Below are positions 4,933-63,829 of a DNA stretch of 64,000 bases, piece by piece; the first letter of the stretch is position 1; every line of letters begins with the position of its first letter. The DNA lies in the NCBI GenBank assembly GCA_004764695.1, contig SMSO01000025.1, positions 1,178,001 to 1,242,000 on the forward strand. The letters run 5' to 3'. A program made the position numbers and the translations under genes. The notes beneath the pieces were generated by a model. That model did no database searches. It had not been told where the DNA came from and saw only the letters and a list, made by a program, of their open reading frames with translations. Origin of the DNA: Schizochytrium sp. TIO01 (lineage: Eukaryota; Protista; Bigyra: Labyrinthulomycetes).

Positions 4933-7194
4933 TTAGGTTTGCTTGCGTTTTTGAAACAAAGTTGATAACTTTACAAAAGGTTTCGAACGGCACATCCGCG
5001 TTGTGAAAGTTATAAATAGCATGACGCACAGTAAGCAAGTCCAAAGTTCATCAGGAATGCCATAGCGGTAATTCCGTGAAACGGCGAGAGTATCACTATT
5101 AACCCGATTTTCGGATGTATTGAATGGATGGGATGAACTCTCGTAAACATGGTGTTTGCCAGCTTGTTCAATCATACCCCGATGCAAAATCCTGTAAGTT
5201 CCTACTTCTTGGTCTTGTGGAATCACCCACTGACATGTACATACACTGAAAAGAAGCCACTTTCGACGCCAATAGAATCGAACAGGCCAATCGTGATCTT
5301 TAGCGATAACTAACCATTTGTTGCCACCATCATTTTGCTGAACTTTACGCTGAATATCACAGAACGATCCCACAAGAAGCTGGCTATTCAAAGGGCGAGC
5401 ACACCAAAATGAAGCTTGTGCAACCTCACCTCGTGCAAATGCACTTCCTGGTAGAATGTCAGATAAGACCATTCCCAGTTCAACTGAAGGAGGTAGAAGT
5501 GGGTCCTTTTCAAGTAATTGGGTTGCAACGACGAGAGGCGCAGGTCGACCCTGCGCAACAAATACGGGGGATCCTAGTTGGTGTGGCTGGTCTTCCAAGA
5601 TCACACGTGTCAGCATATCTTGGACAGCTCGAAGCTGATTTCTTCCGAAGTGGGTTGATGCCCCTTCGTAATGCTGTGTATCATACTCTTCAGCTGTGGC
5701 AAGATATCCTGAGTAGGCGTTACTAACTGCCAACACTTCGATGTGAAGGTCTAAGGATCTGGGAGTGCCACTTCGCTGGTGGAAGGCATTACTCACGGTG
5801 TTCCGAATTCTACGCCCAGACATAGTTGTAACCTCAAATGGAAGAACAGCCAGAACGAAGTCGCCAATCGCAACTACTTGAATTGGCAACACTGGAGGTG
5901 TTGCAGGCGGATCTGTGAGTCCTGTCGCCATGGCCGCAATTTTCGGTTTGTGACACTCCTGGACTTCCTCTGGGATATGAATTCGTCCTATAAGTGCGCC
6001 AGAGAACAATCTTGCAAAGGTCCCACCTGGACTGGATCGTAGAAAACCTTCGTACACCAATGGCACACCTCGACCATCTTCTGTACCAGCGAGCATATGC
6101 AAACCGGTTACAGCAGGGCAGAGTGTGAGGCCATCACTTTGTGTCTTGTATTTGGGAAAATCAAAAGCTACTTTCCGGGCAAAAACTGAAGAGTTCAGAG
6201 TAACCCAAGGTCGATGTTTCGTCTCAAATAAGACAACCTCCGCGGCGTCTGCTTGACATCTCCCGATTGCTTCTGCACTTCGCACAAAGTCCTGACCATG
6301 TGGTCCAGCAAATGTACCATCCTTCATATCTACCACGTTTGGGCTAACATCTCCTGCATCTATTTGGAAAAATGCGAAACTTGTGTTAGGGTACTTCGAC
6401 TCCAAAAGCCACTCTGCGTAACCTTTGTTGTCAGAGCTAATCATGTTGTTTACACCAGCTAGACTTGTCGTATGGACCGCAAAAAATGTCCAGACGGCAG
6501 AAATCTTAGTTGGGTCGTCAGCTTCAATAACTCGAACTACAGTCATGCGATTGTTTTTAGCATCGTCGTAAAGATCTCGCTCTTCCTGTGGGTTGGCAAG
6601 GTATGCATCCATTGAGCGCTGCTTGCTGCAGTTAGGGATGTTAATCGATGAGAGTTCAAGTCTACGCGGCAGACGCAGATTATGGGCATCAACTATGGCC
6701 TCGACAATGCCATTGGCTACCATTTCGAAGTGAAGTGGTGTAAAACCTAGAACAGAGAGATAATATAAGTAAAAAGAGTGCAGCCCACCTGGTCCTGAGT
6801 GAGTATGCTGCGCATGGAGAGTTACAGTGTCGCTGTTGTATACACCTGGAACCCTTTTTTCAAGTTTCTCAATCACAGCCTCATGTAAGGCCAGCGGTAT
6901 GCTGTGAATATCACAGTGTGCGAGTGCAATGATATTATTATCAACGTCCTCAATCACATATGCACGCACATATAGTCTGTTTAAAAGCCCTTTGGCGCGC
7001 TGCAGAGTATCTGCGTAGCCCATCATGGTTTGCTCAGCGACGGGCCCAGTGACATCTGCTTTGCCAATACCAATATTAAAGATGTTTGACATGGCTTTCG
7101 CCTCTGTCGTGTTTTCTGATAGTGCCCCAAATGAGGAGTACACAAGCACAGCAAACGTTAGGAAACTAACGAATCCTCGCCGCAGTCTCAACAT
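4933..7194 (-). CDS. Neutral/alkaline non-lysosomal ceramidase with N-terminal signal peptide and C-terminal hydrophobic anchor
   Basis: 753 aa. Motifs: GIGKADVTGP, MMGYA, HTHSGPGG (Zn ligands), SSDNKGYA, GDVSPN, AGTEDG, EVTTMSGRR, NAYSGY, QHYEGASTHFG, GTYRILH. Confidence 0.95.
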   Translation of the reverse strand: MLRLRRGFVSFLTFAVLVYSSFGALSENTTEAKAMSNIFNIGIGKADVTGPVAEQTMMGYADTLQRAKGLLNRLYVRAYVIEDVDNNIIALAHCDIHSIPLALHEAVIEKLEKRVPGVYNSDTVTLHAQHTHSGPGGLHSFYLYYLSVLGFTPLHFEMVANGIVEAIVDAHNLRLPRRLELSSINIPNCSKQRSMDAYLANPQEERDLYDDAKNNRMTVVRVIEADDPTKISAVWTFFAVHTTSLAGVNNMISSDNKGYAEWLLESKYPNTSFAFFQIDAGDVSPNVVDMKDGTFAGPHGQDFVRSAEAIGRCQADAAEVVLFETKHRPWVTLNSSVFARKVAFDFPKYKTQSDGLTLCPAVTGLHMLAGTEDGRGVPLVYEGFLRSSPGGTFARLFSGALIGRIHIPEEVQECHKPKIAAMATGLTDPPATPPVLPIQVVAIGDFVLAVLPFEVTTMSGRRIRNTVSNAFHQRSGTPRSLDLHIEVLAVSNAYSGYLATAEEYDTQHYEGASTHFGRNQLRAVQDMLTRVILEDQPHQLGSPVFVAQGRPAPLVVATQLLEKDPLLPPSVELGMVLSDILPGSAFARGEVAQASFWCARPLNSQLLVGSFCDIQRKVQQNDGGNKWLVIAKDHDWPVRFYWRRKWLLFSVCTCQWVIPQDQEVGTYRILHRGMIEQAGKHHVYESSSHPFNTSENRVNSDTLAVSRNYRYGIPDELWTCLLCVMLFITFTTRMCRSKPFVKLSTLFQKRKQT

Positions 7195-24349: not shown

Positions 24350-25597
24350 CTAGCGTGATGACGGTGAAGACGAAAGACTACCATCAAGCCTGTCGTCGTC
24401 ATCATCAACTCCTGCGAGGAGCTGCTTGTCTCCTGATAGGCCTTCCATCTCAAACTGTTCAAAAGGCCCGTCGTCCATATCGAGTCCTGCGTGTGCCGAT
24501 GTATCTAGGTCGAGTCCCATTTCCATTTCCATATCGTCCATGTCGATTGACGGCACGTTATGTTGCAGGTAGGTGTCTGCGTCTGCGTCTAATCTTAAGC
24601 TTTCCAAGTCTCCAACCATCGCCGCTGTCTCCGCTGCCTGCACGGCTCCCGTTTGCGGCGAGTTTTTCCTCGAGTTAGGCGACATCTTGACGCGTCCATC
24701 CTGAGTCAATCCCACATCCATACCTCCGCTTTCAGACTGCTTATGCGAGAATTGGTCGTGCAACTGCATGTCAGTTCGCCTCGCAAAGCCGCTCCTATCC
24801 TCAGTGAGAGACCTTATCGCAGAAAATACTTCCATGCTTGATGGCTCCATTTGCAAGCTCCTGTTGCTTCCTTCCCAGGCATCCACCAGCCCAGTGCCAA
24901 GCTGCTCTTCCTCCTCTTCTTCCTCTTCTTCCTCGTCGCCCTCCAGCAAGATCGGGGACCGCCCGAGGTCCCCATCAAAACTCACACGCTGCCGTGAACG
25001 AGCCCGTGATTCGCGCTGCCGCCGCTGTTGTCCGAGATTATACTGCGAGTTTGATCCAGAGGCCTGACCGCTCTTGGCGAGGTCGAGACCATCGTTACTT
25101 CCACTGCGAGGGCGGATTCGGAGCGCGTGGAGAATGTTAGTGCCGGCATTGCCTGCGTACGTGGGGGCTGACTGTGCCAGGTTGCGGGATCCGAAAGCGC
25201 TAGCACCAGGTGACGGAGGAGGCAGCTCAAGGTCTGGCATGCGTCGCGACAGGTAAGAAGGAGCAGGCATTGAGCCGATAATGGGAGCTCGCGGCGCCGG
25301 TGCGGACTGAGCAAAGTTCTTGCCCGCGCCTGTGGCCAGGGAGTTTGAGTTTGGGTTCATAAGACCCCCTGCGCGAGCCTGAGACCGCATGATTGGGATT
25401 GGACGCGAGGTCGAAGAGGCAGATGGAGACGCCTCGCCTCCTGCCGATGGTGAAGAAATGCTGTCGCCGCCACTCATGCCGCCCGAGAGGCCGCCAGGCG
25501 GAGCCTGCGCCTCGAGGCCACCATGAAGGTGTTGGTGAAGATGGTGGTGATGATGATGACGGTCCGCGTCGCCGCCCAGGCCGCCCTCGCCCGACAT
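24350..25597 (-). CDS. Uncharacterised low-complexity, disordered protein (poly-His, poly-Glu, repeated AQSAP)
   Basis: GC-rich open frame of ~415 aa from ATG 25597 (MSGEGG...). The ORF-track start at 25657 is not ATG. An upstream exon is possible because TACAG lies just 5' of the ATG. Confidence 0.75.
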   Translation of the reverse strand: MSGEGGLGGDADRHHHHHHLHQHLHGGLEAQAPPGGLSGGMSGGDSISSPSAGGEASPSASSTSRPIPIMRSQARAGGLMNPNSNSLATGAGKNFAQSAPAPRAPIIGSMPAPSYLSRRMPDLELPPPSPGASAFGSRNLAQSAPTYAGNAGTNILHALRIRPRSGSNDGLDLAKSGQASGSNSQYNLGQQRRQRESRARSRQRVSFDGDLGRSPILLEGDEEEEEEEEEEQLGTGLVDAWEGSNRSLQMEPSSMEVFSAIRSLTEDRSGFARRTDMQLHDQFSHKQSESGGMDVGLTQDGRVKMSPNSRKNSPQTGAVQAAETAAMVGDLESLRLDADADTYLQHNVPSIDMDDMEMEMGLDLDTSAHAGLDMDDGPFEQFEMEGLSGDKQLLAGVDDDDDRLDGSLSSSPSSR

Positions 25598-35816: not shown

Positions 35817-38800
35817 TTACAGTTGGTATGATTCGCCATCATCTTCATCTTTTGCCGCTGGAGGGTAAAAGTTTTGATCTCCAGGGTGCAGAATAATGCT
35901 CTTGGAGCGTTTAATTCGCGGCTTTGGTGCTTGAATAACGTGCTGCTTGCGATGAGTCTTTGATTCTTCGAAATCAGATTCTTGAAATTCATCCTTCTGC
36001 TCCTCCTCAACAATACTGACACGCGGAATTCGCATCGAGCTACTCTCTCGCATCGAGCTGTTCTCTGTACCTGAAATTCGCTTGCCAGAGTTGTTATTTA
36101 TATCTTGGTCGGTGACAGACTTTCGAGACATTCGGCGTGTTAATGGATCAATTTGGAGATTTTGCTGGCTGGCTTGCGGGGCAAGAATTCCCGGATTATA
36201 CGTCCAAACAGAGACCTTCTGCATATCCCAAATTCCGTCCCAACTCTCTTCAGGAGGATTCTCGATAAGGAACTCGCAACGTTCCTCGAAGAGACACGCG
36301 GGGCCATCACCAAGGTCAGCCGCCTCATTAAAGTGCTGCAGTGCCTCTTTCACATCGCGGCTGCGGTAAGCTTTCAAACCCATGTTATAGGCATGCAAAG
36401 CACGAACTTGACGATCAGTAAAGGCATTATTCAAAGTATGGCCGGCACCAATAATCTCAAATAGCTGCGTCTGGTCGTCCTTTCCAGCAACTCGGACACG
36501 ATCGACTTCGCGCAAATAGATCACCTCTTTCTCTCCGTCTGCACTCTCAATAAGATCTGCGCTCCCATCAACAATACATACAGGACAGCCACTATCCTTA
36601 ATATCTTCGAATGTAGCCGCACTCACCAAATTAGTGACCGAAAATTCTTTGGTCGAAGATTCTAAGCGCGATGCAACGTTCACTGCATCACCGATGACTG
36701 TATACTCGAAACGGTTCTCTGAGCCAATATTTCCGCAAAAAACTTCGCCCGTACTTACGCCAACCCCAATCTTGATGACTGGCTTGCCTTGAGCCCGCCT
36801 TGGCGCATTGAACTCCTTCAACGCTATCTCCATCGCTTTTGCAGCCATGCAGGCATTGTAAGCATCCTGGCTACTCTGCTTGGGAACTCCAAATACTGCC
36901 ATTAAAGCATCGCCAATGAATTTATCTACAATCCCTCCGTGTCGCGTAATGACTTCGACCATACAACTGAAGTACTCATTTAATGTAGCGAAAACCTCCT
37001 TGGCACCAACTTTCTCACTAAACGTAGTGAATCCTCGAATATCGGAAAACAAAATTGATACCTTTTGTCTACTCCCACCAAGTTTGAGCTGGCCATCATG
37101 CAGTAAGTGATCGACCACATCAGGTGCCAGGTACTTGTTCAACGTATTCCGAAGTTTTTGTTCGGGTGTTTTATCATCAATGCATAAAACAGCTCCGATG
37201 ACTTCGCTGTCTGTAGCATTTTTGCTTCCATAGTTCGAGCAAGGGGCTCCAGCTTGAGTGTCTGTAAGATCTGTGTCCTCTACACTAGCACTATCAGCAA
37301 CAAACAATGATCTGTTGGAGCCGAAATTGTCCCAAATCTTGGATAATTTTTGGTTGGCTAGCATTGGCGGTTTACCTCCGGCAGCCATTGGGGAAGGCTC
37401 GGAAAATCGTTTGACAACATCATTTTGCATGTTGCCAAGCTCTTCTTGGGCATTTATGAGTTTACTTAAGCTGTTACCCATGCCAAACATTGGGTTCACG
37501 GAATAGTTCACAACATGGCCACCAGCAGCCATGGGGTACTCTGAACGTGTCACGTTCAGGTTTCTCGCTTGGCGCTCGTCTTTAATAGCTTCTTGGAGCA
37601 CTCTTTGGATATCATTAATCATTGACTCTTCAGGCAGCCATTCCAGGACCTTTGTCGTTCGCATGACTTGAGTAGGGATGTCTGTGCCAAAAAGCTGGTT
37701 GAGTTCGGTGCTACTTCGATTACAACCCATCAAAAACCCTTCTTTATCAACTGTAATAACAAGCTCGGAGACATTCTCAAGTACACATTTCAAACGATGC
37801 CGAGCGATGAAAGACTTAGAAAACAACTCCGTATTTGCAATAGCTACGCTCATCATTGAAAACATGCCGCTCAGTAGCTGTTCGTCCTCCTTATTAAATT
37901 CAACATGTTTAATCGCCGCGCCATACACAACACTTCCACGACGAAGCATGTCATTGTTGTGAACGCGAAAGTCACCAGTAAGAGATGCTGCACCAGTCCG
38001 ATTCTTGGAAATATGATTTTCCGTACGCATTTGGTTATTTGAAATAAGCTCTCGACCTTTGCCAGAGTGCGCCATTGACATGGATTTATTAGAATCCAAA
38101 ATCGATGTTTTCGATGATGTGGATGACCAGTATGTTTCATCTGCTGCCGCGTTCCTAGGCGTAATCCCAATGCCTGTGTTTGGAGGGTGTTCCTCCTCGG
38201 GGGATTTCTTGTTAATGAGTTGAACTACTGCGATAACTGCTCCTTCGGAGTTCTTGATTGCTCCACATAAAATAGTATGCGTACGATATTCAGTTTTAAT
38301 GTCTACGTCCTTGTTGAATCGCTCATCTTCGTACGCATCTTTGACATTAACGAGCTCCCCAGTCCGTGCAACGTAACCCAGGATACCCTTGTCCATAGGT
38401 AGACGAACAATGTCATCATTATTTGAGACTTTAAGCCACTCTTTCGAAGAGCTTGTTGCAACTGTCCAGAGTGTCTTTGCCTCAGGATCAACAAAAAATA
38501 GGGAACACCTATCTACCATAAAGGTCATCTGGAGTTTACGCACGACAGTCCAAACAAGTGAGCGGATATCCAAGGTCGCACCCAGCGCCACAGCAATATC
38601 TAAAATAGCCTCCTTCCGTCGACGTTCATTAAACTCTCGTTCACGGAGCTCCACATGCATCATATATCCAGCTACAATGCTACTTGAAGACTCAAGAAGG
38701 ACGACATCATCAGAAGTGAAGGGCACAACTGCCTTGCCTTCATCGCGTTTGTTGATCACCTGAATGACTCCAATGACATGCATTCTTCCCTTTTCACGGT

Positions 38801-39647
38801 GTTTTTCAGGGAGAATCCGATTTAAGTCCTGCTGGTGAACAGTCTCCAGGTCAAGGGATGTAAAACCTCGACCAAGACGTACCGGGGCCTTCGGATCAAT
38901 GTATCCTATTGGAATTGTGAGCACTGATATCGCAGCTGCATCTGTACTGCTGTTCTCATACTCCATACCAAACCTCTCATCAAGCTTAATGTCCGGAATA
39001 TTAATACATTGTCCTGTTGTAGCGACGTGCCCAGCAAGACCTTGGTTCATAGGGATTGGCATAGAAATTACATCTGCAGCATTATCCCCTTTATCAAAGC
39101 TTCGTTTTCCAGAGCTAGCATTACCCTTGGTTTGCCCGCGAGAAACCTGCATTCGTAGACACTTTTGCTCTGGGTCCACAACGTACAAGATCGCTCGGTC
39201 AGCTTCTACAAGCTGCGACAGAGTGCGAATAATGTATGCATATTGGCTCTTACGATCGTACCGCTTAGAGAGTTCTCGCGCAAGGCGGTTCACCTGCCAA
39301 AGTCTTCGAAGCTGAAGCACAGACTCTCGCGCGATATTGCAAAGTTCATCAGGGTTATCCTTGTTATCTGCCAAGTAGTTTTCTAGCTGAGCTGGGTCGT
39401 AGGTCGTAGTAACATCCGTCAAAAACTCTCCAGGATTTCTCGGAGTCCTCATTGAAGATTGTGACTCAACATCATCGTCGTGGCGTCCACTGGAGCTGCT
39501 TCTCAATGGCTCAAGCTTTTTGCTAGATGGCATGAGATTATGTATTTCATTGTGTTCTCCTCCTTGGCGATTATCATTAATCTCTTCAAGGTAGCGTTTA
39601 CTGGCGAGCGGCGCCGTCGATGACTTCGACGAGGCGCCTGCCCCCAT
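35817..39647 (-). CDS. Class III adenylate cyclase, GAF-GAF-PAS-cyclase-TPR-like tail (cyanobacterial CyaB-like architecture)
   Basis: ATG at 39647 (MGAGASS). Two GAF domains (ADRAILYVVD..GLAGHVATTG..INK..FTSDD; VDRCSLFFVD..GILGYVARTGE..DAYEDERFN..INK..FNKEDE), then a PAS-like segment, then cyclase motifs LFSDIRGFT, DKFIGDALM, GNIGS, YTVIGDAVNVASRLE, VAGK, and the tail PPEESWDGIW. Confidence 0.93.
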   Translation of the reverse strand: MGAGASSKSSTAPLASKRYLEEINDNRQGGEHNEIHNLMPSSKKLEPLRSSSSGRHDDDVESQSSMRTPRNPGEFLTDVTTTYDPAQLENYLADNKDNPDELCNIARESVLQLRRLWQVNRLARELSKRYDRKSQYAYIIRTLSQLVEADRAILYVVDPEQKCLRMQVSRGQTKGNASSGKRSFDKGDNAADVISMPIPMNQGLAGHVATTGQCINIPDIKLDERFGMEYENSSTDAAAISVLTIPIGYIDPKAPVRLGRGFTSLDLETVHQQDLNRILPEKHREKGRMHVIGVIQVINKRDEGKAVVPFTSDDVVLLESSSSIVAGYMMHVELREREFNERRRKEAILDIAVALGATLDIRSLVWTVVRKLQMTFMVDRCSLFFVDPEAKTLWTVATSSSKEWLKVSNNDDIVRLPMDKGILGYVARTGELVNVKDAYEDERFNKDVDIKTEYRTHTILCGAIKNSEGAVIAVVQLINKKSPEEEHPPNTGIGITPRNAAADETYWSSTSSKTSILDSNKSMSMAHSGKGRELISNNQMRTENHISKNRTGAASLTGDFRVHNNDMLRRGSVVYGAAIKHVEFNKEDEQLLSGMFSMMSVAIANTELFSKSFIARHRLKCVLENVSELVITVDKEGFLMGCNRSSTELNQLFGTDIPTQVMRTTKVLEWLPEESMINDIQRVLQEAIKDERQARNLNVTRSEYPMAAGGHVVNYSVNPMFGMGNSLSKLINAQEELGNMQNDVVKRFSEPSPMAAGGKPPMLANQKLSKIWDNFGSNRSLFVADSASVEDTDLTDTQAGAPCSNYGSKNATDSEVIGAVLCIDDKTPEQKLRNTLNKYLAPDVVDHLLHDGQLKLGGSRQKVSILFSDIRGFTTFSEKVGAKEVFATLNEYFSCMVEVITRHGGIVDKFIGDALMAVFGVPKQSSQDAYNACMAAKAMEIALKEFNAPRRAQGKPVIKIGVGVSTGEVFCGNIGSENRFEYTVIGDAVNVASRLESSTKEFSVTNLVSAATFEDIKDSGCPVCIVDGSADLIESADGEKEVIYLREVDRVRVAGKDDQTQLFEIIGAGHTLNNAFTDRQVRALHAYNMGLKAYRSRDVKEALQHFNEAADLGDGPACLFEERCEFLIENPPEESWDGIWDMQKVSVWTYNPGILAPQASQQNLQIDPLTRRMSRKSVTDQDINNNSGKRISGTENSSMRESSSMRIPRVSIVEEEQKDEFQESDFEESKTHRKQHVIQAPKPRIKRSKSIILHPGDQNFYPPAAKDEDDGESYQL

Positions 39648-41668: not shown

Positions 41669-43855
41669 CTAATCAAAATCGTCAAAATCTGCGTCATCAG
41701 TAGTGGCCGCAGGGGCAGGGGCGTGTAGATTATCAGTACCTGTTTCGGCAGCCTTGGCTTCTTGGAGAAACTCGAGGGCATCTTTTGGCGAGACATCATC
41801 AACGGCCACAGAATCATCGCTTGAAATAAGCGTCAATTCTGCATCAACTATTCTTTTCCATAAATCTTGCGGTGCAGTTGACTTCGTGCTGCGCAGGAAT
41901 AAGTTGAATTCTTCTTCAGTACTTGCCCGTAGAGATCCCTTTCTTAAAGTTAACATGCACTGGACGGCCTTGGGATAAAATTCCTCTCCTCCATCTGGAC
42001 CGAGAAGAGTTTCAATTTGGCCCACCATACCGCGAAAAGCAGGTATGGAAAGATCCTTGTCTTTACGATCTAGCATATGGTTATAATCGTTTTCAGGATT
42101 GACGCTTCCAACTTGATCAACCAAATCTTTACTACTGAACCAATCTCCCGAAGAGGTCCCAACATTAGTATCTGTGACCATGCCAATTGCAGCAGGTTCC
42201 GGGGGAGCTGATAAAGTTGCCTCTACCGTGCCACCCGAGATAGAGTCACCAAGACGCGCCCTTTTTGACTTTGACCCTCCTTCATCTAGATGTTCTAGTT
42301 GAAAGAGTGCTTTAACTTTGTCAATCTGGGGTTGGCATGCTTCCAGGATTTGAGCATCAGGTTTGTATAGCTTTGTGACTTCAGGGTCTTCCTGCGGCAG
42401 GGCAGAATCTGGAGCTTTGGAACGTTCATAGAGTAATTTATAAAGTCGCTCTAGAAAAGGGTTCAACGTGTCTTCGGGACGAAAAAGCTCCCTTTTGAGC
42501 CCGTGCGAACTCTCGCCTTCCAGTTTCACATTTGAGCTCAAGTCCATTTTGGTCACAAGATCGTCAACAGCTGCAAGCTGCTCGCTTGATGGAGTAAGAG
42601 ATGGCAACTTGATTGTACCAAATGAAAATTCTCTTGTGTCTTGTTCAAACGGGAGCTCACGTGTAAATAGGCACGTATAGCCCTCCATCTCGTCTTTATA
42701 AGGGATTAATGCAACGATCACCATGTTGCCTCTCTCCCTCGGAACAAATCGAGCAATTGCAACACGTTTCATCTCCAAAAGGGCCTCGACCCAGGCTTCG
42801 AACCCAAGATTGGAGTTTGGTTGGCCTGGCATTGCTTCAATGATATAAACTGAGCCCATGTTCATCCACAGCGGGACTTTTTCTTGTCTCAAGTACCCTA
42901 GCACAGACAATTCCTTTTTCGTTTCGTAAATGGCCATTTCAGCATCATGGCCACTGATCGGGACAACTTCGCGACCATATCGATAGCCTTCGGCAATATG
43001 ATCAGGGGAGACGTCCGTATCGGGGTCATCCGGAAGCGTGTATGATATTTGTCGCGATACTTGAGCCTTGTTAACATTAGTGACAGCATCTTTGTCTTGC
43101 TCAGTCACAATTTTCGAGACCTTTTTCAACGTTGGCGCTGATTCTGGCCTCGTTTTGGTGAATGCTTGCACATGGAAACCAGCACTCTGATTGAGTATAT
43201 TCAGCGGGCCTCTATACGCAGCAACCTGTCCTTTTGACCCAACATGTTCTTTGCACAGGTCTGCCCTGGCTTTGCTTGGTGTTAAGAGTGTGCAAATATT
43301 GGGCATAGACGCCACAAAGCTTTTCAGTTCGGTTTCATCACCAGCAATCTCATTGCCTTCTGCATCAAGTTGGACAAAATCCATTTTCAGTTCGGGGCAT
43401 GCATTGATCTCATCTATAGATGATTTTAGGGTCTCTAGGTCTGCCGAATCCTTTGATGTCATGACCACGATCTTACGAGCATACTTGTTTTTCTTAGTTC
43501 TTTTCATAATGATTTGTCTCGCTACCCGAATCGCGCTGCCAAGATCGCCTTTAGGCTGCGAGCTGGCGGTTAGGAATGGATCATTGCTAGCAAGCGAGAG
43601 GGTCTCCACACGGCATGCGCCAATGTCTTGAACAACCACAATATTCTCGCACCCGCCGTACTCTCTATATTCGTCGTTGTCGCTCTCGTCGGTGCCACAG
43701 GCGATGAGAGCGACCTCATCTCCAGCTTTACCTTCACGCAGAACGTTGCTCAAGTATCCCTGAGTGAGCTCTCGGGCTCGAGCAAGAAGTCCATCGCATC
43801 CGTTCGGCTCGCTCACGTCGAGCACAAGCGCTAGCGCGATCTTGGGGCGTGCCAT
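41669..43855 (-). CDS. KU80: Ku80 NHEJ DNA end-binding subunit
   Basis: N-terminal vWA domain (LVLDVS...GTDESDN), Ku core (EGYRYGREVVP, VAIARFVPR, ELPFEQDTREFSF, PEDTLNPFLERL), and Ku80 C-terminal domain (VGSVNPENDY, YPKAVQCMLTLR, LTLISSDDS). ATG at 43855. Confidence 0.93.
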   Translation of the reverse strand: MARPKIALALVLDVSEPNGCDGLLARARELTQGYLSNVLREGKAGDEVALIACGTDESDNDEYREYGGCENIVVVQDIGACRVETLSLASNDPFLTASSQPKGDLGSAIRVARQIIMKRTKKNKYARKIVVMTSKDSADLETLKSSIDEINACPELKMDFVQLDAEGNEIAGDETELKSFVASMPNICTLLTPSKARADLCKEHVGSKGQVAAYRGPLNILNQSAGFHVQAFTKTRPESAPTLKKVSKIVTEQDKDAVTNVNKAQVSRQISYTLPDDPDTDVSPDHIAEGYRYGREVVPISGHDAEMAIYETKKELSVLGYLRQEKVPLWMNMGSVYIIEAMPGQPNSNLGFEAWVEALLEMKRVAIARFVPRERGNMVIVALIPYKDEMEGYTCLFTRELPFEQDTREFSFGTIKLPSLTPSSEQLAAVDDLVTKMDLSSNVKLEGESSHGLKRELFRPEDTLNPFLERLYKLLYERSKAPDSALPQEDPEVTKLYKPDAQILEACQPQIDKVKALFQLEHLDEGGSKSKRARLGDSISGGTVEATLSAPPEPAAIGMVTDTNVGTSSGDWFSSKDLVDQVGSVNPENDYNHMLDRKDKDLSIPAFRGMVGQIETLLGPDGGEEFYPKAVQCMLTLRKGSLRASTEEEFNLFLRSTKSTAPQDLWKRIVDAELTLISSDDSVAVDDVSPKDALEFLQEAKAAETGTDNLHAPAPAATTDDADFDDFD

Positions 43856-44681
43856 AATGGTGGCGTCCAAAAGGGTTCTGCATGGCGCTTGCAGGTGTTC
43901 TTCATCAAACTGCGACTACCCAATAGATACTGCTAAATAAGTCCCCTTACGAGTAAGTAACCTTACCTACCTATCTATTTTACACCTAGTGCTAATTAAT
44001 AACTCTAGATAATGCTGGACCTGTTTTCGCGATTACTTAGGTAGCAGTTACTAGGCAGATACGTGCTCATTAGTTACAGGTAATAATTTAACTTTCAAGT
44101 CGGGAGAACTCAAGTCAGGAGAATTAGTAAGTGTCGCGCAGGCCCATAAGGTGTCTCATATTCAGGTTGCAACCATGATCAAGCGTATCTGATTGCGAAC
44201 ACCAGAAGCAAGGAAAGCATTATACGTCAAGACATTTTTTCTGCAGCTGCATAGGTTGGTAGGTTAGTAGGTATGTAGGTACTTATATTCTTATCTTGAG
44301 GTTTTAGAATAAGGACAACTTGATCAAGTCAGCGCTTTGTAAAACCAAGGTTCCCAAAGCTCAAGACTATTTGTGAAACAAATGACAGGGGAAAAGAAAT
44401 CTCGTTCACATTTTTTTTTCTATATATAATTTCATAGAAATGAAGAAATTCACAAGAGGTGAAGTGAAATAAGGTCACATTCGATGCAATGAAAGTAGTA
44501 TGTAAAATTTGAAGAGACGAAAAAGGACAAAACTTCGATGGAGCAGCAGTCAGTGTGTCACAGGTGTGGCTTTTGAACTCTGGGCAGTATGCAGTAGTAT
44601 ATAAGACGTAAAAAAAAGTCGCTGTAAATGAAATTGAGAAAAAGGTCATCGTAGGTAATTGTAAAGTAGTAGTCACGGTGT

Positions 44682-47600
44682 TCAAGGTTCAAGGGTAGCG
44701 TGTTGATTAACGCGGCCCATTTCAAGATAGTTGCCAGTTTGCATATCTTGCACTTCGAGGATGACAATACTGTGTAGCATTTTGCGATCACGGCTAACCC
44801 AGTTGATGCGAGTGACTCGTTGGTCACCGATCATGTGGGTAAGGATGATTTTGTGGTCCTCAATCCATGCACGATAGGTCCATCCCTGGGAGAGCTGAGA
44901 GAAGGGTGCTGGGAGACTTATACCCCAAGCATGCTCCTCGCCATCTAGCACAAAGCGTAAGATTGTGTTTGAAATCCACTTGCGATTGAGACGGGTCACC
45001 ATGTTCAGACCAACAATCTCAATCTCATATCGGGACTCCATAAATTCAAACATTTTACTTAAAATCCAAGGCGTGCCCATTTTAACTCGTAGCTCCTGCA
45101 TGAGATTCTCCGACACCTCGGTCTGCCTCCATCGACCTTGGATATTGGGGATTCGGACGTTGCCTGGTCCTTCCAGATAAAGCGGCTGGTCCGGACTAGC
45201 ACTATAACTTCCTGTACTTGCAGATGAGCTAGTGGACACGAATGATGTCAGGGCGCCGAACGCGGACCCCAGCAGGGACTGTCTAGGTGTCACAACAGGT
45301 TCTTGTGCATCCAGACTTGGTGATACACTTGATTCTCCCGACATGCGTGTAGGATGTTGCTGTTGGAACTTGTTTACAGCATTGTTGAAGACACGATCAA
45401 ATTCCGAGCGGCTGATGTTCCGGCTCCGTCGATATGACTCTAGATAATCCTGAACCATACGCAAGAAGCCTTGGTAGTCAGGCGCACCGTTGTGAGCTTG
45501 TCGCGTGATATTACCTAGTGCACGTTGGAATTTGGACTCATTACTCAAATACTGTGCAACATCATCAATCATCTGCTCGCTTGTGGTTCGTTTTAGGGGT
45601 CGCGGAAATGGAACATTATCACCAGGAAGAAGACTATTTGTAGAGACACTTGGGTTATGCGATTCAGACTGGACACTGTAGCCATTTTCGATGGTTCCAG
45701 AAGTCCCTGAGGAAGAGTGATATTGCTGAGAGTCGCCATCCTCGTGCTGGGAATGCTTTCGATGTCGTTGCTGGTGCTGTGTGAGATGCGTTTCGCCATT
45801 TTGATGGTGATGCGCAGAACCATGGGCAGGGGGGTAACGAGAGGACTGGGACTGGTGATGAAAGGCAGTAGAATGATTAAGGGACGTTGGTTCAATCGAA
45901 GAATAAGGTGCTCCACCAAAGGAGTCTTCGTTGTTTGCAACGCTGTCAAACATAAAAGGGTCATCCCCAAAATCTGGCATCTTGGTAAAGAGTTCCAATG
46001 CGTCAAGCACGTGAACATTGAAAGCGTCATCAGTGGCTTCATTGTCTTCTTCTGTATCGTTGAGTGGCGCAAGTCCATCAACTATTTCTACAGGATCATG
46101 TATTGCTGAGCTGCCATGAGGGTCGCTTCTAGACGCTACTGTACACGACGAACCTGGCCCTGCAGCCATAGGCGGGATTAGTGGTGGAATTGTCATAACC
46201 ATGGGTCCCATCGAGCTTCGCGCGGTTGGGCCTGGAGCAGACATCGAGGAAGACGAGGCACTCGCGACATCTGAGGCATGCTGTTGTTGTTGCTGCTGCT
46301 GCTGTTGTTGAATGCGGCTCATAATGACCGCTAGGCGCTTAAAGACAGACTCTGCCCTTGAAGAGTCGGCCATTCCTATTCCACCAAGGCGAATAGAACC
46401 AGCCGTGTATGTCGAGCCTTGCGATTCTCGTGATCGATTGGAGTGGTTGGGTAATTTTTGAGCGGCGACTTTTGGAGGCATAGAAGGTACAGATTGAGAA
46501 TGTACAACTCCTTGCATGGATGACTGAACTGGACTCACTTGCGGTGTTAGAGATGACGAAGAAGATGAAGATGCAAGGGCAGTAGGAGCATGATATTTTT
46601 TTCCAGAGGGTAACTTTGATGGACCTACCCGAGAGCTTGGTTGTGGGTACTGGTGTTGATGTCCTTGGGACTGGTGAGATAAGGGTGTAGAAGAGGTGGA
46701 GGAAGAAGAAGAAGAGGCATCCGCGGGATTCTGAGGATTGAGTCTACCAACATTGCCTGAATCTACAAGCGACGAAGAGAGAGAGGTTGAGGACGTCACT
46801 AAAGCAACATTTTCCTCTTCATCGCCATCCTCAACATCCTCATCGTTTCCAAAGTCTTCGTCATCATTTCGCTCCAGACGCTCTCTTTTTACAGTAGCTG
46901 CGTGTTCATTAGCACTTGCTGCAGAACGAGCACGTTTTGTAGGTGCAGATGTAGGTGCAGATGGCATAAGGGTAAATCGGCGACGCCGCCGACAAAACAA
47001 CATGAAGCTTGGTGAGCGCACGATCAGCTTGCAGACATGTTCATTCGGGTCATGCTCGGAAGCCTCGAAAATGTAGCACTGTAATGCATGTTGGGCGTTG
47101 CATGTGTGTTTGTTTGATGCCCAACCATAATGCCATCCCCGACGCTCTCTATTAAATTCAAACGAAGTAGAAGACTCAGTACACTTTTCATCTAGACGCT
47201 CTCCACGGACTAGAGGTTTGATAGGTTCATCCTTACTCCTCTCAAGATCCAACAAAACATCCATAGAAACACGCTCGCCAAGATGATAACGTGGTGGCTC
47301 GTCTGTTCGTACAAATTCTACCCAAGTGTTGAATCGGCTCGAAGATGTTTCTGGAGGATGCGACAAGTCAATTTCCACAGATCGGCCACAGAATCCCTTT
47401 TCTTTGTGTCGAAATCCACATGATGGGAAACACCTCAGGTTCTTAAGTCCACCGCGTTTATTGTTTCGTTGGTATCTTGGTTTAAAAATAGAGTTCTCAA
47501 AGCTTCCGCGCATTCCGCCTGTGCCATTAATACCCCCCTGAGTACCAACCGGACCATGGCGTGTTCGCGGAGCCGTCATCATTTCCATAGTATTTTGTCT

Positions 47601-48107
47601 GATTGGGCCAATAGTACCACCGTCCCCAGTGCTTCTTCCACCTAAAATAGGGGCTGATGCAGCTCTTGAGCTAGTAGCGTAAACTTCCTCAGAACTGTCT
47701 CTAAATGCCATCGAAAATCCTTGTGGTTCATTCAAAGATGTTGGGACAAGTGTAGATTGCTCATCATTAAGTCGACCTGACATGTGCGGTGAGGGGGCCA
47801 AGGAGTGCAGTGGTACGACCACGGGCCCTTGTGAGGGCGTCCTGCGATAATCTGGGTGCGGTCGGCGATATATTAAAGTATCTTGATCGTTTTGGTACAT
47901 AGCTTCTGCAAAGTTCTCTCCGGGTAAAGTCAGCTCATGCATGGGGTCTGGAAGTGCATGGTTTCCTCGCCGTGAATAGGCCTCTGCAGGGTCTGGAATC
48001 ATGTCATAATTAGCAGGCATGCCCGCTTGAGCAACCGAGTCATACCCGGCTTCATTCATAGCGAAGCTGTGGTGGGCCAAATCTCCCCGGGGCTGTGGCA
48101 GCTGCAT
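44682..48107 (-). CDS. 1141-aa uncharacterised protein: Cys/His basic N-terminal domain, long S/Q-rich disordered region, C-terminal FABP/lipocalin-like domain; putative transcription regulator
   Basis: Long ATG ORF with a globular block at ~aa 200-380 ending in RRRRR, poly-Q/poly-S tracts, and a C-terminal NIQGRW..SENL..KMGTPWILSKM..FVLDGEEH pattern. The ORF is confident; the function is inferred. Confidence 0.85.
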   Translation of the reverse strand: MQLPQPRGDLAHHSFAMNEAGYDSVAQAGMPANYDMIPDPAEAYSRRGNHALPDPMHELTLPGENFAEAMYQNDQDTLIYRRPHPDYRRTPSQGPVVVPLHSLAPSPHMSGRLNDEQSTLVPTSLNEPQGFSMAFRDSSEEVYATSSRAASAPILGGRSTGDGGTIGPIRQNTMEMMTAPRTRHGPVGTQGGINGTGGMRGSFENSIFKPRYQRNNKRGGLKNLRCFPSCGFRHKEKGFCGRSVEIDLSHPPETSSSRFNTWVEFVRTDEPPRYHLGERVSMDVLLDLERSKDEPIKPLVRGERLDEKCTESSTSFEFNRERRGWHYGWASNKHTCNAQHALQCYIFEASEHDPNEHVCKLIVRSPSFMLFCRRRRRFTLMPSAPTSAPTKRARSAASANEHAATVKRERLERNDDEDFGNDEDVEDGDEEENVALVTSSTSLSSSLVDSGNVGRLNPQNPADASSSSSSTSSTPLSHQSQGHQHQYPQPSSRVGPSKLPSGKKYHAPTALASSSSSSSLTPQVSPVQSSMQGVVHSQSVPSMPPKVAAQKLPNHSNRSRESQGSTYTAGSIRLGGIGMADSSRAESVFKRLAVIMSRIQQQQQQQQQQHASDVASASSSSMSAPGPTARSSMGPMVMTIPPLIPPMAAGPGSSCTVASRSDPHGSSAIHDPVEIVDGLAPLNDTEEDNEATDDAFNVHVLDALELFTKMPDFGDDPFMFDSVANNEDSFGGAPYSSIEPTSLNHSTAFHHQSQSSRYPPAHGSAHHHQNGETHLTQHQQRHRKHSQHEDGDSQQYHSSSGTSGTIENGYSVQSESHNPSVSTNSLLPGDNVPFPRPLKRTTSEQMIDDVAQYLSNESKFQRALGNITRQAHNGAPDYQGFLRMVQDYLESYRRSRNISRSEFDRVFNNAVNKFQQQHPTRMSGESSVSPSLDAQEPVVTPRQSLLGSAFGALTSFVSTSSSASTGSYSASPDQPLYLEGPGNVRIPNIQGRWRQTEVSENLMQELRVKMGTPWILSKMFEFMESRYEIEIVGLNMVTRLNRKWISNTILRFVLDGEEHAWGISLPAPFSQLSQGWTYRAWIEDHKIILTHMIGDQRVTRINWVSRDRKMLHSIVILEVQDMQTGNYLEMGRVNQHATLEP

Positions 48108-50816
48108 GTCAATCCCAGCTTCTACTAAACTTGAATTTACGCTCTTCCCGGCCTTTTTAGATTAAGGTTCTCCTACTGTGACTGGATGCAGTGTCTGAAT
48201 TCCTGTGTGACAAGTTTGTTTGCAGTTGAAGCCTTCTTTGTGGAACGTGCGGTACGTGCGATATCTCGGTCCACGATTGGCTTCCGATGTTGCCAGATTT
48301 TTTATCAAGTCTGACAATTTTCGCTACTGGTCCCGTCCAGTCTAAAGAGCGCCCTCAGAACCTCTAGTCGCCTTGAAATGGCCTCTCCGATGCAGTAGCA
48401 AAGGCTTTCTTGCCCGGGCCAAATGCGGCCACTGTGAGATCACTAACACCAATATGGACCTCAGTAGTATCTCCTTTCTTTTGCTTGCGTAGACCTCGGA
48501 AAAGCCTCGTAATCGGGCTCGACCCGCTGCCACGATTTGGCGCCTCGGGGTCACCTTCCGGCCGCCTGGCTGCCGGCAGGCCCCGATTGGACCTGTGAAG
48601 CGCCTCAGTCGACGCAGGTCGGCAGCCAACCGAGGCCGCCGCCCGCACGACTGCGCGGGATTGAGAGTCTGACTCGGCGGCCAAATGGAAAGCGACGCGA
48701 GACAGAGAAAAGAAATGTGCCTTGGCCTCTTTCCATTTCCATAATAAACCCGTATCATTCCCTACGCCGCAATTTCTTTCATTCTGGCCATTCCGCTTTA
48801 CTCCACTTTCCAGTCTATAACATACAGTTCTGTATCCTATAACCTACTGTAAAGGACTTTATAACTCACTTGCAATCTCCTCATTCCGCACTTGCGACTC
48901 CTTGGTTCCTCTTTCTGCTCTTGTGCCTAAGATTACTCTCCTTTTATTTATTCTTCAATTATTGCTTTTCGCTTCTTCTTCCTTTAACTTATCCTTTCTT
49001 CCTCCTTGATAGATATAAATTGATAAATTTATTTTTCTTTATTCCTCCTTTTGCTACATAGGTATACATAGTATTTTTATTTGATTTATTTAAAAAAAAC
49101 TTTAAAAACTTTTTATTTTATTTTTTAAATGTTGTTTCTTAATTAAAAGATTACATGGTATCCTAAGTACCACTCTTTGTTGCCAAAGGAATTCAATTGT
49201 CGGAAAAACCAAGCATAGCAGAAGAACGAAAAAGAGTGACCCCATAAACCAAGAACAACTTGTAAATCAACGCCACCAATACCACAATAGAACCACGAGG
49301 TGGAGATAAAGTGCGTGTGAGTGGGGTGTTGCATGTGGGGCACTATGCGTAACTCGCTTCCTATTGTCGCCTATTAAACGAAAACGTCGAAGTGCCCCAC
49401 GATCTCGTTCTTAGTTCCCGGCATCCTTAATCTCTTTCTGTCCAAGTCATTCTATATAACATTACACTCTAAAAGTAAAACATTTATTTTACATTATTTC
49501 TGCAAGTGAAGCCTTCTCGCAGCACAGCAACTATCGATCTCTCATATTTGTATGCTGCCTTAAAGGCTAGCCAGCTGTCCAGATAGAGGCCCCTTCTCCG
49601 ATGAAGTCTGGTACGAGTTGCCTGCCACCTTTGGTCCCTCGGCCATGACTCCTCTTGCTGTCTGTCACGAATACTCGCCCGCGTCGATGTCAGTTGTTAT
49701 CAAGACTGAAAGGACCTCCAGATACTTCTTCAGAAGGTACGCACTGTAAGACAGAAAGGGTCTCGGAGCAGAGCAGATGAGAACAGATCAGTGGGTGGGT
49801 ACTTCGATACCCCACCACCTACCTACACATAGAGCAGCAGGCACAGTGAAACAAATAGCAGCTGCTGCTCCTGGTGGATGTTTACCCACCATGTGTCTGT
49901 CATGAACCACGCGAATAAACAGCACAAATACCGTAAATGCCTTCATCAATCGAGGCGAATAGTTTCCATCTTGAGCTAACAACTAAAACCACCACCCCAA
50001 ACTTGCTTTTTCGATGGCAGCAAATGGCATCCCTACAACAGCAACAACGAAGACAAAATTAACAACAGCGACAATGTCCACCTCGACGAGTTTTCTCTCC
50101 AGACTTCCCTGCTCGTTGGCTTCGTTCTGCAGCTCCGCTCGAGTGCAATGCCCTGCTTCGAGTCCTTTTCTCCACAGTCTTCTCCTTCATTCGTGAGCTC
50201 TTCAAAGTGATCGACAACTAGGTACAGTACTTCTAAACGAATGAACGAATGAACTGCGATGTGCGAAGATTGCGACACTCGTGGCTGTCTGCCATTTTGT
50301 CTTCTTGAAGGCAAGCCCATTCGTGGCACGAGTTGATTGGCTCGAGCTGGAAAAGCTAAGGCGGACTCTGCTTGGTTATGCAGCCCTTTCCGCATTCCTT
50401 CGCTGAGCATGGTCGATTGTTTTGATTCTCCAAAGCACGCAAAGTTCGAGTTGGTTCAATCATTTACCTATCATCCTCAGCCTGTTTTCTGACATTTTTA
50501 TTCGATGGTAGATACTAAGTACCTACCTATACCCTACTTCAACGCCGCTGCATTTATTTATAGGCCTATAATTCGTTCTATGATGATTCCATGGTTCATT
50601 CCATCAATCACAGCGCAGCTTCTTCCGCCTCGCGGCGACTGTTCGCGCCTTCCTCGGCGTAGCTTCCAGCTTCGATCGCGCTAGCACGCTCGCCGGCACG
50701 CCGCTTCCACGCCGACCATCGCAGCGATCGAACTCGAGGTCTCTCAGAGCCCTGCTCGTTCATGCAGCGCTCAGGATGCCTCCATCGATCGGCTGTTGCT
50801 CCTCAATCGATCGCGA

Positions 50817-62587: not shown

Positions 62588-63829
62588 ATGGAAATCAAAA
62601 TTGGAATGATCATGAACTCCGAAGCGCGATCAAAATTGCACCTAGCTCGAGAGGAAATTGCTGAGGCAATTGGCGTGCTCGAGGCTCACATCCGAGAGCG
62701 CTGGGGGGCTGCGAGGTCCTTTGCAGATGGCGAAGAGGAGGAGGAGGATGACGAAGAGGAGGAGGAGGAGGCCGCTTGTGAGCCCAGGTCAATAAAAGGT
62801 GGCTCTAAACGCCCTCGAGAAGACGTTGCCAAAGTAACTACGGATGGACATTCCGTTGATCCAGACATGGAAGAGGATAACGATGAAGATGAAGATGATG
62901 GTGAGAATGACGACGAGAACTTCACTCTGAAAAAGATATTCCCAGGAGGTCGCTTCGCAAACGCGGATGCCATGCAATGGTACATGAATGCAGTTCCAGC
63001 TTCTGGGTTCGTACCATGGACCTCTGCGGCAGTCCGCAGACTTATCAATGCAGCACATGATTATGCGGAGGACTGGGAAAAGGTACAGCGTCGCCAATTT
63101 CCAGGTTATTCTGTGCAAAGTCTTAAGCTACGACATGCTTACGAGGTGTGTCGGGCTCAGGATGGACCTTTTACAAAAGCGCAAGACAAGTCACTGCGGG
63201 AAATTGCAAAGCGTCATAGGGAACGTTGTTGGGATCTCATCAGCAAAGAGTTTAACGAAGCGCACGATACGCAATACACAGAATGGGCTTGCTTAGAGCA
63301 GTTCGTGCGTAAAAAGGCACCTGCTTCATTTTCAAGCCTTGATGACGAGAAGTTAACAAAATTGGTCCAGGCCTTCGGAGATGGAGATTGGCAACTTATT
63401 GCTGAATTGATGCAAACCTTCACGGCACGTCAGTGTGCAGCAAGGTATCGCGAGCATCTTGAAGCTCGACAAGAGGTGGCGGAACACCGGGCGAGAACTC
63501 CCTGGACATCTCTTGAGGATGACCGTTTGCAGCGCTGCGTCGGCGCGTACGGTGAAAACTGGACCCTTATTCAAAAACACTTGCCGGGCCGGTCCGCTAT
63601 GCAATGTAGAGAGCGATGGAAAAATGTTCTCGATACATCATTGAACAAGTCTGCTTGGACGTCTGCTGAGGACACTTTGTTGCAGCAGCTTGTAGCTAAG
63701 CATGGTGCTGGTAAATGGAGTAAGATTGCGAAAGAGCTCAGCGCTCATCAACAACATATCGGCCACGGAGCACGGACGCCAACAATGTGTCGAAAGCGCA
63801 TGGCAACTTTGGCGCCTTTAGCTAAATGA
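62588..63829 (+). CDS. Multi-Myb-repeat protein, SNAPC4/SNAP190-like
   Basis: Five Myb-like units (WTSAA, FTKAQD, FSSLDD, WTSLED, WTSAED) with LPGRSAMQCRERW and an acidic N-terminal region. First in-frame ATG is at 62588; the true start is uncertain. Confidence 0.75.
   Translation: MEIKIGMIMNSEARSKLHLAREEIAEAIGVLEAHIRERWGAARSFADGEEEEEDDEEEEEEAACEPRSIKGGSKRPREDVAKVTTDGHSVDPDMEEDNDEDEDDGENDDENFTLKKIFPGGRFANADAMQWYMNAVPASGFVPWTSAAVRRLINAAHDYAEDWEKVQRRQFPGYSVQSLKLRHAYEVCRAQDGPFTKAQDKSLREIAKRHRERCWDLISKEFNEAHDTQYTEWACLEQFVRKKAPASFSSLDDEKLTKLVQAFGDGDWQLIAELMQTFTARQCAARYREHLEARQEVAEHRARTPWTSLEDDRLQRCVGAYGENWTLIQKHLPGRSAMQCRERWKNVLDTSLNKSAWTSAEDTLLQQLVAKHGAGKWSKIAKELSAHQQHIGHGARTPTMCRKRMATLAPLAK

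Follow-up and report, generated by a model that had tools for sequence, protein, structure and literature searches.

The locus at 44682-48107 (minus strand) of a 64,000-nucleotide stretch from the labyrinthulomycete Schizochytrium sp. TIO01 (contig SMSO01000025.1, positions 1,178,001 to 1,242,000; hereafter the window) raises the question of whether a single protist protein can join a DNA-binding domain to a pocket for a lipid. An initial annotation had proposed exactly this, a lipid-sensing transcription factor with a FABP-like barrel at its C-terminus. Our analysis of the 1141-residue product supports a more general version. We propose that it is a ligand-regulated transcription factor of the one-component kind. 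DNA would be bound by a predicted immunoglobulin (Ig)-fold sandwich (N-domain, residues 200-386), and activity would change when a small molecule, hydrophobic and probably acidic, is held by a predicted FABP-type barrel (residues 986-1141); the probability of this reading is about 0.5. The protein belongs to a real and conserved family that is apparently undescribed. Thraustochytrids are industrial producers of docosahexaenoic acid, and a direct lipid sensor, if that is what the protein is, would make the regulation of oil accumulation in these organisms testable with two small, well-folded domains.

The gene is a single uninterrupted open reading frame (ORF) from ATG to TGA. A near-identical 1139-residue protein (P0004; 99% identity in the N-domain, 100% in the barrel) is a complete ORF from a transcriptome, and the two-domain fusion is therefore not an artefact of gene modelling. 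Contigs from four runs in four studies cover the gene and end in the flanking intergenic bins, a weak hint, as their RNA origin is a guess; one contig crosses the gene from 44388 to 48555 with no joint. Strain variants occupy 16 sites in the ORF, nine of them non-synonymous (eight in disordered parts and one in the N-domain), which is too few for a test of selection. The protein has no membrane-like segment. Within the window there is no second copy of the N-domain or of the barrel, and the C-x3-C-x3-H-x5-C pattern of the N-domain occurs once in the six frames.

The guess that the N-terminal block adopts an Ig-type DNA-binding fold is compatible with the predicted structure. The AlphaFold2 model of the N-domain (107 sequences) has a predicted local distance difference test score (pLDDT) of 94.8 and a predicted template modelling score (pTM) of 0.90, and is a sandwich composed almost entirely of beta structure. 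When 48,161 chains were searched with VIA, p52 ranked first with a moderate Z of 7.5 (root-mean-square deviation (rmsd) 3.8, 137 aligned residues). Ranks 1-9 (p52, RelA/c-Rel, p65, RBPJ, TonEBP, VosA, a p65-range chain, VeA and p50) are, judged by their titles, Ig-fold transcription factors throughout, as are 14 of the top 20; TBX5, STAT, RUNX1, Cep-1 and MYRF are also in the top 20. VosA, Grainyhead, VeA and STAT5 stand in the top Foldseek rows amid antibody domains. Sequence identity to the best structural matches (NF-kB, velvet, CSL and NFAT5) is 5-12%; the assignment of VosA to the p50 fold rested on a 113-residue, 2.8 Å match at 13.7% identity (PMC3876986; papers are cited by PMC number for the sections available to us). 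Language-model neighbours include LAG1, p53 and NDT80 clusters (0.80-0.75), which are leads only. In the Atlas, the DG1062_N cluster (PF28397, Pfam 38.1) is at rank 3 with a score of 0.90 and 184 shared features, PF28397 being assigned to 50% of its 66 members; two oomycete clusters are closer and have no common Pfam family. The Pfam copy that was scanned gave no match to the N-domain and may not include PF28397. The Z score of the N-domain is moderate and would be weak by itself, and the DNA-binding reading carries weight because of the uniform function of the top rows together with the conservation of particular residues.

All motifs that the initial annotation had quoted are present: RYQRNNKRGG (211-220), C226-x3-C230-x3-H234-x5-C240, WHYGW (325-329) and SPSF..CRRRRR (365-377). 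Lys or Arg is found at positions 214, 217, 222 and 225 (R214, K217, K222 and R225) in 178, 177, 182 and 182 of 188 aligned domains, and the secondary structure of the predicted model places this basic loop after strand 1, ahead of the next core strand. C226, C230, H234 and C240 are kept in 182, 181, 180 and 183 of the 188, with exceptions that are mostly gaps. Further along the domain, W325 (185/188), Y327 (186/188), W329 (179/188), H340 (186/188) and F368 (177/188) are conserved, as is Lys or Arg at 374 (177/188) and 375 (163/188). The query has basic clusters at 373, 391 and 407, and the median net charge of the 188 domains is +9. The loop is a likely DNA-reading element, the Cys3His cluster is likely to be one structural metal (Zn) site, and the Arg-rich tail is likely to contact DNA, act as a nuclear import signal, or both. 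In VosA, replacement of Lys/Arg residues in loop A abolishes DNA binding (PMC3876986). By analogy with loop A of VosA and NF-kB, DNA would be read by the basic loop that follows strand 1 together with the Arg-rich tail, whilst the cluster would bind Zn and brace the loop. We regard this part of the proposal as probable.

The annotated helical block and C-terminal domain were both recovered, as predicted helices at 842-917 and a domain at 986-1141, and the suspected FABP-like barrel was predicted with ten strands. AlphaFold2 was run on residues 835-1141 with 62 sequences and gave, in order, four helices, a low-confidence linker, a strand, two helices and nine strands; the barrel strands and helical lid have pLDDT values of 88-98. 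Foldseek returned 175 matches to the barrel at E≤0.001, those listed all having the FABP fold and intestinal FABP (I-FABP) being the best (E 1.2e-5). In the VIA search, likewise of 48,161 chains, CRBP4 was closest (Z 14.2, rmsd 2.6, 132/133 residues). The top ten (Z 14.2-11.9) consist of nine FABP-family chains and nanoKAZ luciferase, and the next chain has Z 8.8; individual scores are 14.0 for both UnaG and LBP-8, 11.9 for nanoKAZ, 7.8 for phycobiliprotein lyase and 7.7 for the THAP4 nitrobindin domain. Identity to animal intracellular lipid-binding proteins is ~14-19%, and family profiles pick up FABP9, CRABP2 and I-FABP by sequence, below significance (best E 0.12 and 0.022).

The G-x-W calycin motif is present (G991 in 97% and W/Y993 in 96% of 86 barrels), and the most conserved positions are G991, W/Y993, D1055, P1066 and R1100. 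R1100 (80% of 86) aligns with the strand-H Arg (TTIKR) of FABP9, which we take to be Arg106 in FABP numbering. The FABP carboxylate clamp consists of Arg106, Arg126 and Tyr128. Strong conservation extends to R1007, P1013-W1014, K1018 and K1043-W/L1044, which belong to the lid and to the turn between strands C and D. The second lid helix aligns with R29/K30 of CRABP2, residues that contribute to a nuclear-localisation signal; here the family has Arg in 50% and Lys/Arg in 84% of the 86 barrels and the query has Ser-Lys (residues 1017-1018; 45054-45059, minus strand); a ligand-gated import signal is a possible role for this basic pair. The barrel fold is secure as a prediction and a pocket is plausible, whereas a fatty-acid ligand is less sure because only one of the three clamp residues appears to be kept. 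The cavity would bind a lipid-like ligand through the inward-facing R1100, the Arg106 equivalent. That the barrel has a cavity and binds some hydrophobic ligand is more likely than not; that the ligand is specifically a fatty acid is doubtful.

The 455-residue linker is rich in Ser (18%), Gln and acidic residues and is poorly conserved among seven close homologues, and this composition and poor conservation point to disorder. The annotation had described ~470 residues of Ser/Gln/His-rich and acidic disorder and had missed two conserved islands and a short conserved helix (~945-957). The island at 584-600 is conserved in the seven close homologues and was found in 10 of 85 barrel carriers; that at ~693-720 is partly conserved in close homologues. 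The four helices preceding the barrel (pLDDT about 87-95 in the 835-1141 model) occur in 70 of the 85 barrel carriers when near-duplicates are counted. VIA gave no distinctive structural match for this four-helix domain, which was folded jointly with the barrel only. It would probably serve in dimerisation or cofactor docking. A bound ligand would move the helical lid and, via the adjacent four-helix domain, alter dimerisation, cofactor docking or nuclear import, with the Ser/Gln/acidic linker serving as activation region; we see an even chance that this relay operates.

The N-domain is widespread. A search with it found 710 cluster representatives at E≤0.001 and 339 at 1e-10, the best 150 of the 710 being listed. 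Both domains occur in 64 of 154 N-domain proteins, and in 64 of the 77 that have at least 300 residues beyond the N-domain. The barrel profile was built from the same protein set, seeded with 48 direct BLASTP hits, not counting the query and its near copy; its best scores were E 3.1 against shuffled and E 2.1 against reversed sequences. Dozens of diverged homologues conserve the order of sandwich, four-helix domain and barrel. Among named organisms, the fusion is carried by Mucochytrium (two paralogues), Hondaea fermentalgiana (P0097, P0187, P0188) and Aplanochytrium minuta, the last with a partial match to the barrel; the query barrel is 74-75% identical to a cluster named Mucochytrium quahogii. 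All named carriers are labyrinthulomycetes save P0182, labelled Batrachochytrium salamandrivorans, which nests among other carriers in the tree, and we suspect a contaminated assembly. The 105 N-domains in the tree exclude 21 near-duplicates or query pieces, rows with fewer than 130 profile positions and barrel-less rows with tails under 300 residues. The tree places 75 barrel carriers over many deep branches, with 8 label changes vs 26 for shuffles; support is poor at its root and in its deep branches, and the order of events is therefore not inferred.

The initial annotation had asked whether the two domains co-occur across labyrinthulomycetes and oomycetes. They do so across the former; in the latter the N-domain alone is clearly recognised (Phytophthora, Peronospora, Plasmopara, Hyaloperonospora, Pythium, Globisporangium, Lagenidium, Aphanomyces, Saprolegnia and Thraustotheca). 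When oomycete C-terminal regions were set against the barrel profile, a Thraustotheca/Aphanomyces set of five reached a probability of 26% (E 7e-4, 102 columns; reversed 0.09%), and other oomycete regions gave 45% (P0206), 6% (P0118), 1.2% (P0214), 0.4% (the P0119 set) and 0.3% (P0037), which is suggestive of a barrel-like region in some oomycete proteins. P0048 of Thraustotheca clavata is a 1471-residue model with three tandem units of N-domain, helical and barrel-like parts, possibly merged tandem genes. In an oomycete subfamily (P0196-P0213; Phytophthora, Peronospora and relatives) the N-domain follows ~180 residues of a separate conserved-looking region, seen in P0196 and P0207. Outside the eukaryotes, none of six N-domain pattern matches in viral contigs was confirmed, and one of 114 in prokaryote genomes was, a partial match running off a 6-kb contig of a Saprospiraceae metagenome-assembled genome (L001:2977-3197) that is probably contamination.

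Other homologues carry the N-domain in different company. P0013 pairs it with Myb and AP2 (possibly a merged model), P0219 with zf-CW and three more with Cys/His repeats. Five barrel-less homologues (P0120, P0137/P0179, P0221 and P0223) have a C-terminal membrane-like helix, which suggests membrane-tethered transcription factors. Such pairings fit a regulator with exchangeable control modules. P0180, a transcriptome record, was rejected as a real fusion: its N-half is joined to an unrelated kinase at the poly-Gln (CAG/CAA) run, window 46275-46315, where the switch occurs, and it is likely a transcript or assembly chimera.

How does this architecture relate to known systems? THAP4 has an N-terminal zinc-type DNA-binding domain together with a 10-stranded barrel at its C-terminus, is nuclear, and has been suggested to link the chemistry of a ligand with transcription (PMC6275384, PMC13631171). 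Like human THAP4, our protein places a DNA-binding-type domain, here a predicted one, and a C-terminal 10-stranded barrel in one chain. Unlike THAP4, it has another DNA-binding fold and an FABP-type barrel with a lid instead of a heme barrel (Z 14.2 vs 7.7), and it belongs to an expanded family, whereas THAP4 is the single human paralogue with its barrel. There is no THAP match in Pfam, and no His exceeds 58% among the 86 barrels. In the bile-salt receptor VtrA/VtrC of Vibrio, binding of a lipid-like ligand by a calycin barrel leads to activation of a DNA-binding domain (PMC4933562). The likeness lies in the coupling, proposed here, of a calycin-type barrel to a DNA-binding domain; VtrA/VtrC is bacterial, consists of two proteins acting across a membrane, and has an 8-stranded barrel and an unrelated DNA-binding domain. 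With these two precedents, a DNA-binding domain plus barrel is a known category of which this version is apparently undescribed. The annotation knew of no characterised family with such an architecture; the exact arrangement does seem undescribed, but the principle has precedents.

The N-domain resembles the N-domain of the NF-kB Rel homology region, velvet proteins (VosA/VeA), CSL and NFAT5 in a moderate, near full-length structural match and in the basic loop after strand 1. It differs from them in the contiguous Cys3His cluster in the loop, the fused barrel and the stramenopile distribution; Pfam gives no Rel or velvet match, and a low-complexity linker follows in place of a second Ig (IPT) domain or ankyrin repeats. 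The predicted barrel shares with FABP, CRBP, CRABP and LBP-8 its ten strands, the helix-turn-helix lid after strand A, the GxW start and the Arg106 equivalent, and in much of the family it shares with CRABP2 the basic pair in lid helix 2 (R29/K30 positions). FABPs are stand-alone cytosolic proteins of about 130-140 residues, whereas this barrel is a domain of protist proteins of 600-1100 residues (1141 in the query); Arg126/Tyr128 are apparently not kept, and a Pro-rich insertion is present. Animal FABPs carry lipids to nuclear receptors via a basic signal in the lid (PMC5399370). Unlike these carriers, which serve separate receptors, the carrier fold here shares one chain with a predicted DNA-binding fold.

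One-component lipid-sensing transcription factors include nuclear receptors, plant HD-ZIP START proteins and fungal Upc2/Oaf1. The proposed logic is similar, with DNA-binding, disordered activation and ligand-binding parts in one chain and expansion into paralogues, but every component fold differs. Pfam shows no match to the C4 zinc finger or helical ligand-binding domain of nuclear receptors, and each of the two domains is predicted to be a beta fold. On the proposed reading, the numerous diverged paralogues would form a nuclear-receptor-like sensor panel built from unrelated folds. More broadly, labyrinthulomycetes may have independently evolved such a system, an expanded family of transcription factors combining a zinc-braced NF-kB-like DNA-binding domain that had escaped recognition with an FABP-type pocket, each paralogue responding to a different lipid, and the same DNA-binding domain may define a hidden transcription-factor family in oomycetes; this wider idea is tentative.

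Several observations weigh against a ligand-regulated transcription factor. For the N-domain they are that (i) its best Z of 7.5 falls within the VIA range that may reflect a common arrangement; and (ii) Foldseek gives no match at E≤0.001, the best being E 3.6e-3. For the two domains together, Pfam gives no RHD (Rel homology domain), velvet, p53, NDT80 or lipocalin/FABP match for the query or 62 members. Pfam matched neither query domain (none for the barrel at E≤1), no lipocalin/FABP match appeared in the 62 members at E≤0.05, 25 further homologues gave no RHD or velvet match, and single-sequence PDB searches returned nothing useful for either domain. For the barrel, the register of FABP Arg126/Tyr128, deduced from the strand end, falls on Gln1135/Ala1137, which are not conserved Arg/Tyr; a conserved Pro-rich insertion (~1063-1075) has no FABP counterpart and could fill or cap the cavity; and the closest language-model neighbours are NanoLuc-like clusters instead of FABPs. 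The barrel was not found in 13 of the 77 long homologues, and its profile matches none of the named oomycete proteins tested. The helical and barrel model has a pTM of 0.59, with no sign of mutual packing. Finally, no result ties the gene to lipid metabolism, and its neighbour encodes Ku80.

One alternative is a transcription factor whose barrel is not a switch and instead works with the four-helix domain in protein interaction or inhibition, either free of ligand or permanently filled. The apparent loss of two of the three clamp residues, the Pro-rich insertion and the existence of homologues without a barrel agree with this, and the conserved positions of the lid and strand C-D turn could form an interface. 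We think this unlikely, though a serious alternative: the full ten-strand barrel and lid are retained with Z 14 to ligand binders, and polar residues that face inward by the FABP register (R1100, 80%; H1091, 58%) fit a pocket better than a filled core. A sandwich that binds RNA, chromatin proteins or acidic membranes in place of specific DNA sequences, making the protein a lipid-carrying adaptor, would suit the moderate Z of 7.5, behind which come, at Z 5.7, carbohydrate-enzyme and receptor Ig domains, and the lack of a sequence match to any known DNA-binding family. This is improbable, given that every one of the top nine structural matches is a DNA-binding transcription factor whose DNA-contacting loop is the one occupied here by the invariant basic residues, and that the long Ser/Gln/acidic linker and the Myb/AP2 and zf-CW fusions are typical of nuclear regulators. 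Least probable is a sensor of heme, bilin or redox state resembling THAP4, with a tetrapyrrole in the barrel or with the Cys/His cluster as the sensing part. The THAP4 nitrobindin domain (Z 7.7), phycobiliprotein lyase (Z 7.8) and UnaG (Z 14.0), presumably a bilirubin binder, do appear in the barrel list, and in THAP4 a heme barrel is combined with a zinc DNA-binding domain (PMC6275384). However, no His or Cys is invariant in the barrel (H1091 at 58% and H1059 at 53% are the best-kept His), and an FABP-type pocket is the better fit to the two-helix lid and to a Z far higher for FABPs than for nitrobindin. A ligand-regulated transcription factor remains our preferred reading.

Catalogues of stramenopile transcription factors are built on known families, and a Phytophthora binding survey was confined to 19 families successful in other species (PMC11267843). 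Such catalogues would miss this family altogether, with its 710 cluster representatives and no match in the Pfam copy scanned. Our search of the open literature at title and abstract level found no description of a sandwich-barrel family, and the available sections of PMC13389560 mention no stramenopile or oomycete. If confirmed, the present reading extends NF-kB/velvet-type DNA-binding folds to stramenopiles and places an FABP-type barrel, FABP being described as an animal protein family (PMC4933562), inside a protist regulator. The features of the gene are collected in Table 1.

Table 1 Features of the candidate regulator, with positions in the window.
Feature	Residues	Window positions	Strand	Basis
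Candidate ligand-regulated transcription factor, 1141 aa		44682..48107	(-)	ORF, P0004, one spanning contig
N-terminal beta-sandwich, predicted NF-kB/velvet/CSL-like Ig-fold DNA-binding domain	200-386	46950..47510	(-)	AlphaFold2, VIA, homologues
Conserved basic loop, likely DNA-reading element	211-225	47433..47477	(-)	Conservation and model
C226-x3-C230-x3-H234-x5-C240 cluster, likely one structural Zn site	226-240	47388..47432	(-)	Conservation; metal binding inferred
Conserved GWHYGW..NKH..H segment	324-340	47088..47138	(-)	Conservation
SPSF..CRRRRR domain end, basic tail	365-377	46977..47015	(-)	Conservation
Short conserved helix-like linker island, immediately before poly-Gln run	584-600	46308..46358	(-)	Conservation
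Acidic-hydrophobic linker island, candidate activation motif	~693-720	45948..46031	(-)	Partial conservation; role inferred
Four-helix domain	842-917	45357..45584	(-)	Predicted model
FABP/CRBP-fold 10-stranded barrel with helix-turn-helix lid, predicted ligand-binding domain	986-1141	44685..45152	(-)	Predicted model, Foldseek, VIA

The Ku80 gene lies directly downstream (window 41669-43855, minus strand). P0006, an NCBI gene model in which a close homologue is merged with an NAD-binding gene and Ku80, was rejected as a real fusion; the neighbourhood is conserved, and the name of the model, Ku80, is a misleading annotation. Elsewhere in the window are a 415-residue ORF with no Pfam match (24350-25597, minus strand) and genes for a protein with GAF and adenylate/guanylate cyclase domains (35817-39647, minus strand), a neutral ceramidase (4933-7194, minus strand) and a three-repeat Myb protein (62588-63829, plus strand).

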